Positions 8,286 to 52,150 of a stretch of 64,000 nt of DNA are shown in pieces. Below the pieces are notes generated by a model. That model saw nothing but the letters and a program-made list of their open reading frames with translations, ran no database searches and had not been told where the DNA came from. The position numbers and the translations under genes are program-made. The stretch lies in the NCBI GenBank assembly GCA_004020315.1, contig SAQG01000025.1, positions 13,919 through 77,918 of the forward strand, in the 5' to 3' direction. Position 1 is the first letter of the stretch. Each line of letters starts with the position of its first letter. Origin of the DNA: Mesorhizobium sp. (GTDB taxonomy: Bacteria; Pseudomonadota; Alphaproteobacteria; Rhizobiales; Rhizobiaceae).

Positions 8286-8430
8286 CCTTCTCCCCTTGTG
8301 GGAGAAGGTGGCCGAGCGAAGCTCGGTCGGATGAGGGGTGCTCCAGCTTGGCACCACAGCACTCCGTCCAACACCCCTCTTCCGTCTCTGCGCTGCGCGC
8401 CGATCCACCTTCTCCCACAGAGGGAGGAGG
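8286..8430. repeat. REP/REPIN-like inverted doublet D1 (units 8286-8340 and 8372-8430)
   Basis: Left unit: CTTCTCCC-cttgtg-GGAGAAG hairpin, CCGAGC-gaa-GCTCGG hairpin, GATGAGGGGTG tail. The right unit is a diverged reverse complement (CACCCCTC ... CCTTCTCCCACAGAGGGAGG). It sits between convergent gene ends. Confidence 0.8.
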
Positions 8431-12353: not shown

Positions 12354-12524
12354 CCTCCTCCCCCTCGAGGGGAGGGTGCCTCGCGAAGCGAGGCGGGTGG
12401 GGTCGGTCAAGGCAGCGCGCCATCGCGGTTTCGACCGCGCCTTCCGGCAACGATAATGTCGCAGCCTGAATCGACCGACCCCCTCTGTCGCCTCCGGCGA
12501 CATCTCCCCCTCGAGGGGGGAGAT
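12354..12524. repeat. REP/REPIN-like inverted doublet D2 (units 12354-12407 and 12477-12524), inside the operon between the binding-protein and permease genes
   Basis: Unit 1: CCTCCCC-ctcgag-GGGAGG, GCCTCGC-gaa-GCGAGGC, GGGTGGGGTC tail. Unit 2 in the opposite orientation: GACCCCCTCT, GTCGCC-tcc-GGCGAC, CTCCCCC-tcgag-GGGGGAG. Confidence 0.85.
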
Positions 12525-46658: not shown

Positions 46659-46810
46659 GATCTCCCCACTTGAGGGGGAGATGGCCGGCAGGCCAGAGGG
46701 GGTCGCCTCGCGTGGACCGCGACCCCTTTTTGCACCCAATCACGTCGTGCCTCATGCGCGGCGACCGCCTCTGTCGCCTTCGGCGACATCTCCCCCTCGA
46801 GGGGGGAGAT
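46659..46810. repeat. REP/REPIN-like inverted doublet D3 (units 46659-46707 and 46763-46810)
   Basis: Unit 1: GATCTCCCC-acttga-GGGGGAGAT, GGCC-ggca-GGCC, AGAGGGGGTCGCC. Unit 2 inverted: GACCGCCTCT, GTCGCC-ttc-GGCGAC, ATCTCCCCC-tcgag-GGGGGGAGAT. Confidence 0.85.
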
Positions 46811-48925: not shown

Positions 48926-49475
48926 GATCTCCCCCCTTGTGGGGGAGATGTCCGGCAGGACAGAGGGGGGCGCTGTCCCGCCACCCTTGCCGTGGTTACA
49001 TCCCGCTCCGGCCGTTCATTCAGACGCGCGCCCCAGGCCAGCCGCAATCACAATATGCTGGCAGACATTGTCGATGTCGCGGATTATGTCGTCGTTCCAG
49101 AAACGCAGGACGATCCAGCCGTCCTGTTCCAGACGCACTGTCCTTGCTTGGTCGCTGGCGACAGCATCGGTTTCCGTATGATGGCAGCCGTCGGCTTCGA
49201 CAACAAGTTTCTTCTCCGGGCAAGCGAAGTCGACAATGTAACCGGCGATCGGAAATTGTCGCCGGAAGCCAAGCCCCATCAGCCGGTGCGCGCGAAGCTC
49301 GTTCCAGAGCTTCAATTCAGCTGATGTCATGACCTTGCGCATCGATCTGGCGTTTGCGCGATGTTTTGGAGGCAATGGCGTATGAGGCATTGTCAGTGCT
49401 CGATGGCTATTGAAGTTGGCGCTCTACGGCGCCCCCCTCTGTCCTGCCGGACATCTCCCCCACAAGGGGGGAGAT
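48926..49475. mobile_element. REPIN-like cassette D4: 47-bp perfect inverted arms (48927-48973 and 49429-49475) enclosing the DUF559 gene
   Basis: The reverse complement of 48927-48973 is identical to 49429-49475 (GCGCCCCCCTCTGTCCTGCCGGACATCTCCCCCACAAGGGGGGAGAT), compared by hand. The gene ends 42 nt from the left arm and starts 38 nt from the right arm. Mobility is a hypothesis only. Confidence 0.4.
49016..49390 (-). CDS. DUF559 (Vsr-like endonuclease fold) domain protein
   Basis: 124 aa. MTSAELKLWNELRAHRLMGLGFRRQFPIAGYIVDFACPEKKLVVEADGCHH...RFWNDDI, the canonical DUF559 pattern. Confidence 0.85.
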   Translation of the reverse strand: MPHTPLPPKHRANARSMRKVMTSAELKLWNELRAHRLMGLGFRRQFPIAGYIVDFACPEKKLVVEADGCHHTETDAVASDQARTVRLEQDGWIVLRFWNDDIIRDIDNVCQHIVIAAGLGRASE

Positions 49476-49497: not shown

Positions 49498-50124
49498 CTA
49501 CCCCACAAACCCCACGCTCTTGTGGCTGCCGTCGCAAAACGGCTTGTTCGCCGAATGGCCGCAGCGGCAGAGGAAGGTGCGTTGCGTGCGGTCGACCGTG
49601 TGGCCGGTGCCGGTGACGATTTCGAGATTGCCCTCGAGCTTGAGCGGGCCGTTCTTGGTCGGCGTCACGGTGAGCGGGCCATTCCTCGCGTCCAGCGCCG
49701 GCGTGTCCTTCAGCGCCGGCTCGCCGGTGGCGGTAAAGCCTGATTTGGTGTGGCTGCCATCGCAGAACGGCTTGTTTTCCGAAGCGCCGCAGCGGCACAG
49801 CGTGGCGCGAAAAGACGTCTCGCCATCCAGCACGATCTCGGCATGCAACGCCAGCGGACCGTTTTCCCGGATGCGCACGGTGTTGACCACCGGCGGCTGT
49901 TCCTGCGGCCCGCCATCCTTTCTGATGTAGGTGATGGCGCCCGATGGGCAGCTTTCGGCGATCGCCACGATCTTCTCAACGCTGGCCGCCTCGGGATGGA
50001 TCCACTGACCCTTCGCGTTGGGCACGAAGACACGCGGATCGCCAAGCACGCAATTGCGCGAATGGATGCAGCGTTTTCCTGAAAAGCCGACATCGATCTT
50101 TTCGCCTTCGACCATGCCTGCCAT
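49498..50124 (-). CDS. CDGSH iron-sulfur domain protein with an N-terminal divergent 4Fe-4S-type module
   Basis: Two CDGSH motifs (NKPFCDGSHTKSGF and NKPFCDGSHKSVGF) plus an N-terminal Cys cluster (CIHSRNC ... CPSGAI). Confidence 0.85.
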   Translation of the reverse strand: MAGMVEGEKIDVGFSGKRCIHSRNCVLGDPRVFVPNAKGQWIHPEAASVEKIVAIAESCPSGAITYIRKDGGPQEQPPVVNTVRIRENGPLALHAEIVLDGETSFRATLCRCGASENKPFCDGSHTKSGFTATGEPALKDTPALDARNGPLTVTPTKNGPLKLEGNLEIVTGTGHTVDRTQRTFLCRCGHSANKPFCDGSHKSVGFVG

Positions 50125-50246: not shown

Positions 50247-50388
50247 GATTTCCCCTTGAGGGGGAGATGTCGCCGAAGGCGATAGAGGGGTCGGTACGTC
50301 CTGACACGACCCCATCGCGGACAGAGGATGCCGGTGCTCCACGCGAGGCTTCTGGCCTGCCGGCCTTCTCCCCCTCAAGGGGAGATGG
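50247..50388. repeat. REP/REPIN-like inverted doublet D5 (units 50247-50294 and 50347-50388)
   Basis: Unit 1: GATTTCCCC-ttga-GGGGGAGAT, GTCGCC-gaa-GGCGAT, AGAGGGGTCGG. Unit 2 inverted: GGCC-tgcc-GGCC, TTCTCCCC-ctcaa-GGGGAGAT. As a whole it is the reverse-orientation counterpart of D3. Confidence 0.85.
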
Positions 50389-50404: not shown

Positions 50405-52150
50405 GACAACATAAAAAAGTATTGGCCGCATGCATGTCGATCACTGCACGTTGACGCGCAAGGACAGGCGTTACAAACTAGCCCAGTTTTAAGAAGAACT
50501 AACCAAAGGCGGCTGGTCGTGATTGAGTTCACCGGGGACGACCCAAACGTTTTTGCCGAAAGGATGCTCGAAAATGGTTACATCCCCGAGAATGTTCCAC
50601 CCCCCTTCAGAATAGAAAATCTACACGAAGCCTATCTGACGTACGCAGCTAGCGGCGAGTACATAACGGGAAAGGTACCGACGGAGAGTACTCGCTACAA
50701 CGCTTCTAAACGAAATCGCCAGCGGCGTATTTTTTCGATGCCGAATCCCGTTTTCATGATCGACTGTGTTAAGTATTTTATCGATCGAGCAGACCAAATT
50801 GACGAGCATTTCTCTTTGTCGAGTGACTCCTGTTCGAAACCAGTTTTTATCCCGTCTGGCTCTCGAGCACTCCAGATCGATAGCTTCAACGACTTTTATC
50901 TGAAAAGACGCCGCACATTTTCTACGTCCAGATACATCGTAAAATGCGACATATCGCGTTTCTATCACTCAATATACACCCACTGCATCCCTTGGGCTCT
51001 TCACGGGAAAGGTAAGGCCAAGGCCGATCGCAAAGTCGACTCCGATTCTATCTTTGGCAATCGACTGGATTTTACAATTCGACAAAGCCAAGACGGGCAG
51101 ACAGTTGGAATTCCAGTCGGGCCGGATTTTTCTCGTCTCATTTCGGAAATTGTGGCAACCAGAATTGACGCTAGTTTCCGGTCGACAGCGGGAGCAGATG
51201 TCCCTGTTTTGCGATTGGTAGACGACATTTATCTGGGAGCCGACAACCTTGATGAGGCCTACGGGCTTCTTGGAGTAATGCGGGATTCAATCCGAGAGCT
51301 AGAACTTGATATAAACGAGGCCAAAACCGTAGTCATCGATGCAAGCAGGGACTTTGAATCGCCTTGGCCAGTACATATTAGACAGTCAATTGACAGATTT
51401 AAGGAGTACAAGCAGTCCCTCGTTCCAGAGTTTATTCATGTTCTAGACGAGATAATATCTATATCGATCGATAAAAATGACGATGGGATTATTAAATACG
51501 CTCTTCGCAAGCTGGATAACGAGCTGGTATGGGTAGACTATTGGGAAGCAATTGAGCCATTTCTGATTAGGTGCTGCATATCGTTCCCGCACAGCTGGGA
51601 CTACGTGGCTCAGATAGTTTCCTTGAGAAATGCTATCTCTGGAATTGATAAATCTACTTGGTCGCGCGCGATCAACAAATCATTAGCACAGAACGTCCGT
51701 ACGGGTCACGACTTCGAGGTAACCTGGAGCCTCTGGCTCGCACGGCAATTGAAGATCGAAATTGACGACAAGATATTTGAGCAGATCTTTGAGAAGTGCG
51801 GGTCCTTTTCAATGCTGGTTGCGCTTGACGTACACAAAAATAGCGGGATGGCATGCAAGGTGCCCAAGCAGACCATCCTGTCAAGGTTAGGAGATAAACC
51901 TTGCCTCGGCCCCTTTTGGTTACTTGCGTTCGAAGCCGACCGGCAGTTCGATCTCAAGATCAAGACTAAGAACCTTCAGGGGCACGACTTTTTTAAGTCT
52001 CTTTATGATGACGATGTGTCATTCTATGATTCAGATTTTGAGTTCTTTGACACCGACGATCTTCTTACGACAGGAAAAACAGCTATTAAGAAAACAACGT
52101 CGTATGACGACTCGGAGATCGACGAAATTGAGGATGATTTTTGATCGAAG
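50405..52150. other. AT-rich islet (probable horizontally acquired insert) containing only the RT gene
   Basis: By eye, base composition drops sharply at about 50405 and recovers at about 52150. The flanks are GC-rich core genes (CDGSH protein, lepA). Exact GC was not computed. Confidence 0.65.
50519..52144 (+). CDS. AbiK/Abi-P2-like (UG/Abi class) reverse transcriptase with a C-terminal helical-repeat domain and an acidic tail; candidate abortive-infection/defense RT
   Basis: Part of ORF 50198..52144. I place the start at GTG 50519 (AAAGG 9-10 nt upstream) because everything upstream is the D5 repeat and a GC-rich spacer; ATG 50564 is an alternative. RT motifs: RRIFSMPNP; VKCDISRFYHSIYTHCIPWALHGKGKAK; GIPVGPDFSRLISEI; LRLVDDIYLG; LDINEAKT. 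These parallel AbiK as I recall it (LDLSNFYHTLYTHSIPW, HGIPTGNLLSRIITE, SRYVDDF). Confidence 0.8.
   Translation: MIEFTGDDPNVFAERMLENGYIPENVPPPFRIENLHEAYLTYAASGEYITGKVPTESTRYNASKRNRQRRIFSMPNPVFMIDCVKYFIDRADQIDEHFSLSSDSCSKPVFIPSGSRALQIDSFNDFYLKRRRTFSTSRYIVKCDISRFYHSIYTHCIPWALHGKGKAKADRKVDSDSIFGNRLDFTIRQSQDGQTVGIPVGPDFSRLISEIVATRIDASFRSTAGADVPVLRLVDDIYLGADNLDEAYGLLGVMRDSIRELELDINEAKTVVIDASRDFESPWPVHIRQSIDRFKEYKQSLVPEFIHVLDEIISISIDKNDDGIIKYALRKLDNELVWVDYWEAIEPFLIRCCISFPHSWDYVAQIVSLRNAISGIDKSTWSRAINKSLAQNVRTGHDFEVTWSLWLARQLKIEIDDKIFEQIFEKCGSFSMLVALDVHKNSGMACKVPKQTILSRLGDKPCLGPFWLLAFEADRQFDLKIKTKNLQGHDFFKSLYDDDVSFYDSDFEFFDTDDLLTTGKTAIKKTTSYDDSEIDEIEDDF

Follow-up and report, generated by a model that had tools for sequence, protein, structure and literature searches.

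In a 64,000-nucleotide (nt) stretch of Mesorhizobium sp. DNA (contig SAQG01000025.1 of assembly GCA_004020315.1; this whole stretch is called the window hereafter), a small gene of the DUF559 nuclease family is enclosed by inverted copies of a hairpin-forming repeat unit, with which it makes up a cassette of 550 bp. The comparison of this cassette with other loci showed that the DUF559 gene and the repeat are a cognate, co-inherited pair across many bacteria. The pairing is oriented, subfamily-specific and cross-phylum, it is accompanied by gene-less and internally deleted derivatives, and its presence at individual sites is polymorphic. As the likeliest reading, to which we assign a probability of about 45%, gene and repeat constitute a cognate nuclease-repeat system with an autonomous cassette and non-autonomous doublets, i.e., pairs of inverted units without a gene.

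The cassette and the DUF559 protein

The first-pass annotation of the window had described two exactly complementary arms of 47 nt that enclose nothing but a DUF559 gene of 124 amino acids, with gaps of 42 and 38 nt, and both statements were borne out. BLAST of the unit aligned 49475-49429 with 48927-48973 at 47 of 47 positions, and a repeat search of the window likewise returned the arms, as an inverted repeat of 50 nt (48927-48976 / 49426-49475) that is 98% complementary and has 449 nt between its arms. The sole credible open reading frame (ORF) between the arms is the DUF559 gene on the minus strand. The parts of the cassette are as follows:

48927-48973, plus strand: downstream repeat unit, inverted with respect to the upstream unit (repeat search, BLAST); hairpin 1 at 48927-48949, hairpin 2 at 48950-48961, G tail at 48962-48970
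48974-49015, minus strand: 3′ linker, ending in GGCGGGACAGCG beside the downstream unit
49016-49390, minus strand: DUF559 gene, stop codon included (Pfam PF04480)
49391-49428, minus strand: 5′ linker from the G tail to the ATG, containing the conserved motif CGCCGTAGAGCGCC
49429-49475, minus strand: upstream repeat unit, in the orientation of the gene; exact reverse complement of 48927-48973; hairpin 1 at 49453-49475, hairpin 2 at 49441-49452, G tail at 49432-49440

Each arm is composed of hairpin 1 (ATCTCCCCCC-TTGT-GGGGGAGAT), hairpin 2 (GTCCGGCAGGAC) and the G tail (AGAGGGGGG), and the G tail of the upstream unit, read on the minus strand, is directed at the DUF559 start codon. Both hairpins are predicted to fold as single-stranded DNA (ViennaRNA, z -3.5). 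The 29-nt core of the arm has three matches in the window, compared with 0.00 expected from shuffled sequences. The linkers carry recurrent elements as well: the 5′-linker motif was seen again in cassettes at other loci and ahead of the singly flanked genes described below as cluster A, CGT[AG]GAGCGC is common to the 5′ linker and the linkers of gene-less doublets, and the 3′-linker junction recurs at an unrelated locus (the L002 type, see below) and in deleted cassettes. Searches against Rfam yielded no RNA family, neither in the whole window at the gathering threshold nor in the cassette at E ≤ 1, and a scan of the cassette for sigma-70 promoters and intrinsic terminators found no such pattern.

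The encoded protein matches Pfam DUF559 (PF04480) with an E-value of 3.4e-37, next to a sub-threshold match to MTES_1575; the same scan gave no match to Y1_Tnp, to Vsr or to any transposase family. Residues D54, E65, D67, G68, H71, R96, W98 and N99 are invariant in the family and intact in the protein from the window, and across DUF559 relatives the invariant set comprises an RFWN motif together with the catalytic-type residues D54, E65, D67 and H71. The family profile matched PDB entry 3HRL, an "endonuclease-like protein" of Neisseria gonorrhoeae that is encoded in one of the loci studied here (L095), with an E-value of 6e-29, and the homing endonuclease I-Bth0305I (3R3P) over residues 48-113 with an E-value of 4e-4. 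PADLOC returned a weak "HEase" match and nothing else. Judged by its family, the protein is a predicted Vsr-fold PD-(D/E)XK nuclease. Its closest protein matches are 93% identical, while a look-up of its exact sequence returned no contig. The family as a whole falls into more than 23,000 clusters when grouped at 50% identity.

Census of DUF559 genes in Mesorhizobium, Aminobacter and Rhizobium

A scan with one genome per species yielded 461 relatives, of which the best 80 loci were analyzed. The census set comprised 85 DUF559 genes with at least 69% identity within 963 kb of sequence, made up of loci of 6-12 kb. A unit lies 4-86 nt upstream with its G tail toward the start codon in 80 of the 85 genes, and 50 of the 85 have an inverted unit 13-105 nt past the stop codon as well, as expected if the flanking noted in the first-pass annotation extends to DUF559 paralogues. 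Two of the five exceptions are located at contig ends, and the other three have unit fragments left. Units unassociated with DUF559 occur in the same 963 kb about once per 9-10 kb, and from this background density the chance of finding an oriented unit within 90 nt upstream of one gene is about 0.5%. Since 80 of 85 genes have such a unit, chance can be excluded.

The orthologue in Mesorhizobium sp. AR10 (L001), which lies beside the same hydantoinase gene, has identical 47-nt arms. Loci L002-L011 contain an 81%-identical copy at an unrelated position between GST and aldo-keto reductase genes, and its arms of 135 nt are built from the units of the window cassette. A comparison of the flanks distinguished about 12 genomic contexts, namely three larger clusters, three small clusters and six singletons, and this spread over unrelated surroundings agrees with the earlier suggestion that the 550-bp unit could be a mobile cassette. 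Cluster B (24 entries) is the locus of the window and cluster C (21 entries) is the L002-type locus, while the 26 entries of cluster A show synteny across the genera Mesorhizobium, Aminobacter and Rhizobium. Mesorhizobium genomes carry B, C and other DUF559 copies besides cluster A, and some of them have at least three type-1 DUF559 loci. Genes of cluster A possess the upstream unit only, and their stop codon overlaps (ATGA) the start of a gene that is either glyoxalase-like or GFA-like; the G tail in Rhizobium is placed 4 nt ahead of the start codon. Several assemblies break at the cassette, and one contig of 478 bp consists of the DUF559 gene alone, as expected for multicopy DNA.

The pairing is maintained beyond this subfamily. 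M. atlanticum (L115) has two genes of a second DUF559 subfamily, with about 47% identity to the protein of the window, and each is bracketed tail-to-tail by a second subfamily of units, which is the type seen without a gene at 8286-8430 of the window. Decayed copies of this second cassette were found in L025 and L051, and in Shinella (L098) a unit of the second subfamily is located directly ahead of the DUF559 start codon. In a homologue with 48% identity that comes from a sequencing run (L092), the ATG is preceded by a G tail and the 3′ end carries an inverted unit.

Two further arrangements were observed in the set. In M. marinum (L067, 5362-6408), two full DUF559 genes stand in tandem; the first has both arms, and the second belongs to the cluster A type. 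In L024 (3920-4240) and L050 (10871-11188), tail-to-tail units surround a different cargo of 231-233 nt, a long palindrome with GATCCTCGGGTCAAGCCCGAGGATGACG, another repeat common in alphaproteobacteria. As this cargo differs, the units can bracket things besides DUF559.

Conservation and selection

The repeat units are the best-conserved part of the cassette, as can be seen from the mean pairwise identities:

Upstream unit: 95%
Downstream unit: 91%
Codon positions 1 and 2: 87%
Codon position 3: 66%
5′ linker: 59%
3′ linker: 54%

Hairpin 2 shows compensatory variants (GTCC..GGAC, GGCC..GGCC, GCCC..GGGC and GTCGCC..GGCGAC). For the DUF559 gene, a dN/dS ratio of 0.08-0.12 was obtained, with a dS of 0.56 within cluster B and of about 1.6 between clusters B and C; these codon comparisons indicate that the protein is under purifying selection. 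A perfect match of the two arms is found in 5 of 49 cassettes at a mean arm identity of 93%, and in this comparison the perfect arms of the window cassette are unusual. The upstream arm is of the subtype GTCCGGCAGGAC in 46 of the 49 cassettes, and variation is greater among units distant from the gene. A concerted evolution of the two arms within cassettes was considered and rejected, with a similarity of 93.4% for arms within a locus vs 92.9% between loci.

Gene-less, deleted and polymorphic versions

Gene-less sites in relatives, which the first-pass annotation had proposed as informative, do exist. Five Mesorhizobium genomes (L110-L114) have a gene-less doublet of 150 bp at exactly the site of the window cassette, between the stop codon of the CDGSH gene and a conserved CGTGGCCCAGCGCTCGCGGCTTTATC. 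Its arm subtypes are unlike those of the window, and its linker motif CGTAGAGCGC is also found in the 5′ flank of the cassette. Moreover, a doublet of the window (46660-46810) is missing from the orthologous intergenic spacer of 99 nt in L110, i.e., its presence is polymorphic.

Internally deleted cassettes of 110-174 nt occur in L038 and L060 and keep the 5′ junction, the last ORF codons and the 3′ junction. In L038 (6001-7017), a full DUF559 cassette is followed by two deleted ones in tandem, with spacers of 66 nt between them. This spacer is fixed in head-to-head pairs of units, which gives a discrete element of 154 bp. We do not claim the doublets with linkers of 59-62 nt as deletion products, since in a MAFFT alignment these linkers and the cassette flanks share just the motif CGT[AG]GAGCGC; judged by their retained junctions, the 110-174-nt elements of L038 and L060 are the only ones read as clear deletions.

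Architecture of the repeat unit

Motifs of the BoxC/PIT/TMECO class and mosaic repeats of rhizobia have been on record since the 1990s, and BoxC/PIT elements were reportedly treated by Bergler in 1992 and by Hoyne and Maher in 2000. The unit described here has the architecture of this class, in which a pyrimidine arm is followed by a loop and a purine arm, and these by a second loop and a mirror purine strand. In the type 1 unit, the tail AGAGGGGG mirrors the purine arm GGGGGAGA, and in the type 2 unit arm and tail form the mirror GGGAGAAGG / GGATGAGGG. Corresponding mirrors are present in the units of E. coli (GGGAGAGGG / GGGTGAGGG), Neisseria (GGGAGAGAG / GAGAGAGGG) and Sphingomonas (GGGGAGG / GGAGGGG), and the Azospirillum unit is mirrored, too. 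The units that adjoin DUF559 in E. coli, in Enterobacter asburiae and on pSymB of Sinorhizobium meliloti match the published pattern, CCCTCNCCC-N3-6-GGGNGAGGG-N3-GGGNGAGGG. The Mesorhizobium unit does not match it, having other arms and a structured second loop of 12 nt, and ViennaRNA predicts its two hairpins only.

TMECO was shown to form an intrastrand triplex in vitro by circular dichroism, nuclear magnetic resonance or footprinting, and the copies counted were 23 in strain K-12, with five of these as inverted pairs, and 3610 across 262 genomes (Holder et al., 2015; PMC4666352). The same study tied the motifs to local rearrangement, with unusually rearranged triplex-motif (TM) loci, and "never found" remnants of transposases or integrases near TMECO (PMC4666352). 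Its Table S2 lists, without comment, TMECO 9 between fabI and ycjD (PMC4666352). TMECO was absent from Salmonella, and E. asburiae was the TMECO-richest genome (Holder et al., PMC4666352). Like BoxC/PIT/TMECO, the Mesorhizobium units are intergenic, form frequent inverted pairs and contain the mirror purine strand. They differ in their second loop, which is a hairpin of 12-15 nt vs published loops of 1-6 nt. A further difference is that the published work came without an associated mobility or nuclease gene, the link to DUF559 being new here. The first-pass annotation had called the repeat REP-like (repetitive extragenic palindromic) and limited it to Rhizobiales: the pairing of gene and repeat that it saw stands, but it missed the class to which the repeat belongs and the wider range of taxa.

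Other bacteria and co-variation in E. coli

To sample the breadth of the association, E. coli ycjD was examined together with 16 further DUF559 loci taken from records of PLSDB, namely from Sinorhizobium (two), Neisseria, Azospirillum (two), Shinella, Picosynechococcus, Pseudanabaena, Novosphingobium, Sphingomonas, Sphingobium, Deinococcus (two), Photobacterium, Methylobacterium and Synechocystis. Hairpins with C-rich arms (C-arm hairpins) are present in the DUF559 flanks of 15 of these 17 loci, which belong to alpha-, beta- and gammaproteobacteria, cyanobacteria and Deinococcus, and the units are species-specific. Beside DUF559 the density of units is 2.8 per kb vs 0.57 per kb elsewhere in those loci (Poisson P 3e-10, with loci that are not independent). 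Long inverted arms were found on S. meliloti pSymB (114 nt) and in Pseudanabaena (89 nt). Furthermore, over-extended ORFs among the DUF559 representatives at 50% identity contain translated units, e.g., SPLVGEMSGRTEGG and LSLKGEG.

The positions of some of these genes are as follows. In Sphingomonas (L104, 1501-1896), DUF559 and its units are located between pntAA and pntAB, and on two Deinococcus plasmids (L103 and L109, around 1460-1803) they are found in the hpa operon, between the hpaB side and hpaE. In N. gonorrhoeae (L095, 2001-2700) and Photobacterium (L105, 1867-3297), 5-13 more units follow downstream of DUF559 at regular spacing; the downstream array of Neisseria is in direct, not inverted, orientation.

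In E. coli, the DUF559 gene is ycjD, and a TMECO adjoins it on the fabI side. The YcjD homologue of E. asburiae has a locus unlike that of E. coli, and its ORF ends within an inverted pair of a type B and a type A TMECO. Those YcjD homologues that carry a name are from Escherichia, Shigella, Kluyvera, Enterobacter (E. asburiae included), Klebsiella and others; Salmonella is not named among the top 120, which is weak evidence given that most entries are nameless. The gene is present in 3377 of 5426 complete E. coli genomes. The ycjD ORF joined to a TMECO served as query for an even sample of 59 chromosomes, in which ycjD-positive strains had 12-29 other TMECO places (mean 21.6, n = 37) and ycjD-negative strains 1-17 (mean 8.3, n = 22; Mann-Whitney P 6e-10). 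A co-variation of repeat number with the presence of DUF559, as anticipated in the first-pass annotation, is thus seen in this species, but this correlation is suggestive only because it is confounded by phylogroup.

Downstream of ycjD, in the stretch toward fabI of K-12 (L093; NC_000913, 1351040-1351406), a duplicated remnant of the ycjD 3′ end, GGAGACGGTGCTGGAGAATATTC, is located between a degenerate unit and the full TMECO, and at the other end of the gene the start region overlaps with a perfect inverted repeat of 17 nt. The ycjD-negative strain O157:H7 (L118) contains no ycjD ORF anywhere in its genome at BLAST sensitivity and has different DNA upstream of fabI, with genes for a TetR regulator and an RND efflux adaptor, and an island lies between fabI and the position of ycjD. 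The interval from sapF to fabI thus varies within the species.

Comparison with known systems

The association of REP elements with REP-associated tyrosine transposases (RAYTs) is reportedly also treated in work by Nunvar from 2010. In this system, in which REP elements occur with RAYT transposases and as inverted doublets called REPINs (Bertels and Rainey, 2011; PMC3116915), a small gene is flanked by an inverted hairpin repeat that is also dispersed as gene-less inverted doublets, which is the arrangement described here. Both systems also have in common that the gene appears to be largely inherited vertically, that subfamilies of gene and repeat form cognate pairs, that fewer repeats are found where the gene is absent and that target-site duplications were not observed. 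On the other hand, DUF559 is a Vsr-fold PD-(D/E)XK protein by family and not an HUH/Y1 transposase of the IS200/IS605-like kind, Mesorhizobium genomes contain several DUF559 paralogues vs one RAYT, and the repeat has a mirror G tail (triplex architecture) vs a palindrome tagged with GTAG/CGTC; DUF559 is, moreover, known here from sequence. The "RAYT-like arrangement" of the first-pass annotation is hence a fair analogy with respect to the flanking inverted repeats, but it does not extend to membership. Membership in RAYT and in the intron or intein homing endonucleases was rejected alike, as there is no HUH transposase and the gene lies outside introns and inteins.

I-Bth0305I is a Vsr-like homing endonuclease with an EDxHD motif (PMC2677866; PMC3239194). 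With such enzymes DUF559 shares the catalytic core (E65-x-D67 and H71; 3R3P, E 4e-4), the small, selfish-looking gene and the insertion between or within operons. It differs from them in being free-standing and intergenic rather than part of an intron or intein, in its presumed targets, which are dispersed repeats vs a unique site in a conserved gene, and in having been kept for a long time under purifying selection.

In Caulobacter, the SOS-induced protein VsrA, which has a DUF559 domain, is connected in function with the m5C methyltransferase ScmA; it triggers SOS induction when ScmA is absent, and its authors propose a role in T:G mismatch repair (PMC12907096). Both VsrA and the Mesorhizobium gene are solitary, i.e., unlinked to a methyltransferase gene (PMC12907096), and by analogy to Caulobacter the Mesorhizobium protein may be connected to an unlinked methyltransferase. 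A difference is that the Mesorhizobium gene has no tie to cytosine methylation here and that pairing with a repeat is outside the Vsr paradigm. Assignment to the Vsr family proper failed, as neither a Pfam Vsr match nor a neighboring methyltransferase gene was found. With regard to a pair of insertion sequence (IS) and miniature inverted-repeat transposable element (MITE), inverted repeats are present, and a target-site duplication and a transposase family were not found. By description, the repeat resembles intergenic mosaic elements specific to Rhizobium (RIMEs), Sm repeats and bacterial interspersed mosaic elements (BIMEs), which are likewise intergenic mosaics of alternating palindromic units with conserved linkers; in Mesorhizobium, head-to-head pairs with their fixed 66-nt spacer make up the 154-bp element. 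For RIMEs, we know of no reported protein partner.

Proposed mode of action and rival explanations

In a cognate nuclease-repeat system, DUF559 would recognize the folded unit (a hairpin, cruciform or triplex) and then nick or cut at or near it, and host recombination repair would copy the unit-bounded DNA from another copy. The gene-bearing cassette would be the autonomous form, and gene-less doublets and internally deleted cassettes would represent non-autonomous derivatives. The mode of action would be like that of RAYT/REPIN or like that of a free-standing homing endonuclease with dispersed repeats as targets. Loci with triplex motifs would be rearrangement hot spots because of the same DUF559 activity. 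A wider version of this reading, which we put forward more tentatively, is that DUF559 proteins are the missing partner enzymes of BoxC/PIT/TMECO repeats throughout bacteria, which would make them a second, independent REPIN/RAYT-like system. The Vsr-fold nuclease would then create, maintain or homogenize the repeats by recognizing the folded hairpin or triplex, and its activity would cause the genomic instability at triplex-motif loci. No link between DUF559 and repeats was found in searchable papers, with subscription-only literature outside our reach.

Several observations weigh against a nuclease-repeat system of this kind. That DUF559 cuts, maintains or mobilizes the units is what we infer, and a lone nuclease of about 120 amino acids cannot by itself explain how doublets are inserted at new sites. 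The comparison of the filled site (46660-46810) with the empty one in L110 revealed no clear target-site duplication, the cassette is, by its divergence, old and mostly vertical at its two main loci (dS 0.6-1.6), and no sign of recent movement was seen among the compared loci. The arms of one cassette resemble each other no more than arms of different loci do. Cluster A, without a downstream unit and translationally coupled, has the look of an ordinary resident gene. An upstream unit is missing from E. coli ycjD, and ycjD-negative strains have up to 17 TMECO in a correlation that phylogroup confounds. Finally, Caulobacter VsrA, the sole functionally studied DUF559 protein, points to cytosine methylation (PMC12907096).

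One alternative is that DUF559 is purely a selfish, free-standing homing gene, whose target is the linker of existing doublets and whose arms serve as homology for conversion, so that it spreads itself and has no role in making or spreading the repeats. The occurrence of a gene-less doublet and of the cassette at exactly the same site with different arm subtypes is what replacement by conversion would give, and co-conversion predicts the dominance of one subtype in the upstream arm (46 of 49) next to more variable distant units. The profile similarity to I-Bth0305I, the weak PADLOC "HEase" match and the positions inside the operons pntAA-pntAB (Sphingomonas) and hpa (Deinococcus) point in the same direction. 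Homing by itself does not explain why ycjD-negative E. coli have fewer TMECO or why each DUF559 subfamily has its own subfamily of units, even where the upstream unit stands alone (cluster A), and the age of the cassettes and the strong purifying selection are unlike the usual gain-and-decay cycle of homing genes; we regard this alternative as rather unlikely. A similarly low probability is given to DUF559 as an ordinary repair gene, a Vsr-like mismatch or damage nuclease for which the repeats are passive or act in cis, as a 5′ untranslated region with a Shine-Dalgarno sequence, as an insulator, as mRNA-stabilizing hairpins or through accumulation at a hot spot. The SOS-induced, ScmA-linked VsrA of Caulobacter with its DUF559 domain (PMC12907096), a dN/dS ratio of about 0.1, the conserved synteny and operon coupling of cluster A and the rearrangement of TM loci (Holder et al., PMC4666352) speak for it, and the Rhizobium G tail 4 nt before the start codon could, by its position, act as a ribosome-binding site. 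Passive build-up, however, predicts neither the constant orientation and spacing found in 80 of the 85 genes and the two-sided inverted copies, nor the cognate subfamily pairs, the deleted cassettes and the recurrence in five bacterial groups whose repeat sequences differ. There is also no methyltransferase gene beside DUF559 in the window, the cassette contains no sigma-70 promoter or intrinsic terminator pattern, and PIT/BoxC elements had no promoter or terminator activity in E. coli (work summarized in PMC4666352).

Two further explanations have very little to recommend them. Long inverted repeats around one small gene are the classic geometry of an invertible segment, and the arms might be recombination sites that flip DUF559 on and off. 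Yet the gene is never inverted relative to its neighbors in the about 45 genomes of clusters A and B, where all flank matches join left to left or right to right on the same strand, the window annotation contains no recombinase gene adjoining the cassette and cluster A has one unit only; given the constant orientation, the invertible switch was rejected as highly improbable. Even less credible are two independent insertions of an abundant repeat around a small gene by chance: the family is abundant, with several doublets within the window, but the arrangement was seen for 50 genes out of the 85 in the census and again in unrelated taxa, and chance is refuted by the census.

The pairing would give both partners a testable role. 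BoxC/PIT/TMECO repeats have thousands of copies in hundreds of genomes and have been left without an origin, a spreading mechanism or a protein partner, and DUF559 is a very large family with essentially no assigned function. If the nuclease-repeat reading is true, DUF559 would be a second nuclease class among long-lived, vertically inherited intragenomic replicators of the REPIN/RAYT kind. E. coli is suited to experiments, as ycjD is naturally present or absent; the 3HRL structure has already been solved.

Other repeats and neighboring genes in the window

Apart from the cassette, the window contains four gene-less doublets:

8286-8430: doublet of the second subfamily, CCTTCTCCCC-TTGT-GGGAGAAGG, hairpin 2, then GGATGAGGGG
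12360-12524: doublet of the cassette's family, one arm divergent
46660-46810: tail-to-tail doublet of the cassette's family, downstream of the hydantoinase gene, with about 65 nt of linker
50248-50387: degenerate doublet of the cassette's family, between the CDGSH gene and the reverse-transcriptase island

A DUF559 gene of the second subfamily is absent from the window, though that subfamily of units is present at 8286-8430. The neighbors of the DUF559 gene encode a hydantoinase, a CDGSH protein and a reverse transcriptase, with no methyltransferase gene alongside. A TTG-started ORF from 50198 runs through the degenerate doublet, and its first part is therefore probably not real. At 50444-52144 on the plus strand, a defence-type reverse transcriptase is encoded, with Drt6 (E 9e-153) and Drt4 as best PADLOC matches. 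The island with this gene, located beside the CDGSH gene and after the degenerate doublet, has a low GC content of 46-49% vs about 65% around it. The CDGSH gene itself contains an 82%-identical direct repeat (49521-49581 / 49749-49809), which corresponds to the two CDGSH domains of the protein and looks like an ordinary internal domain duplication.

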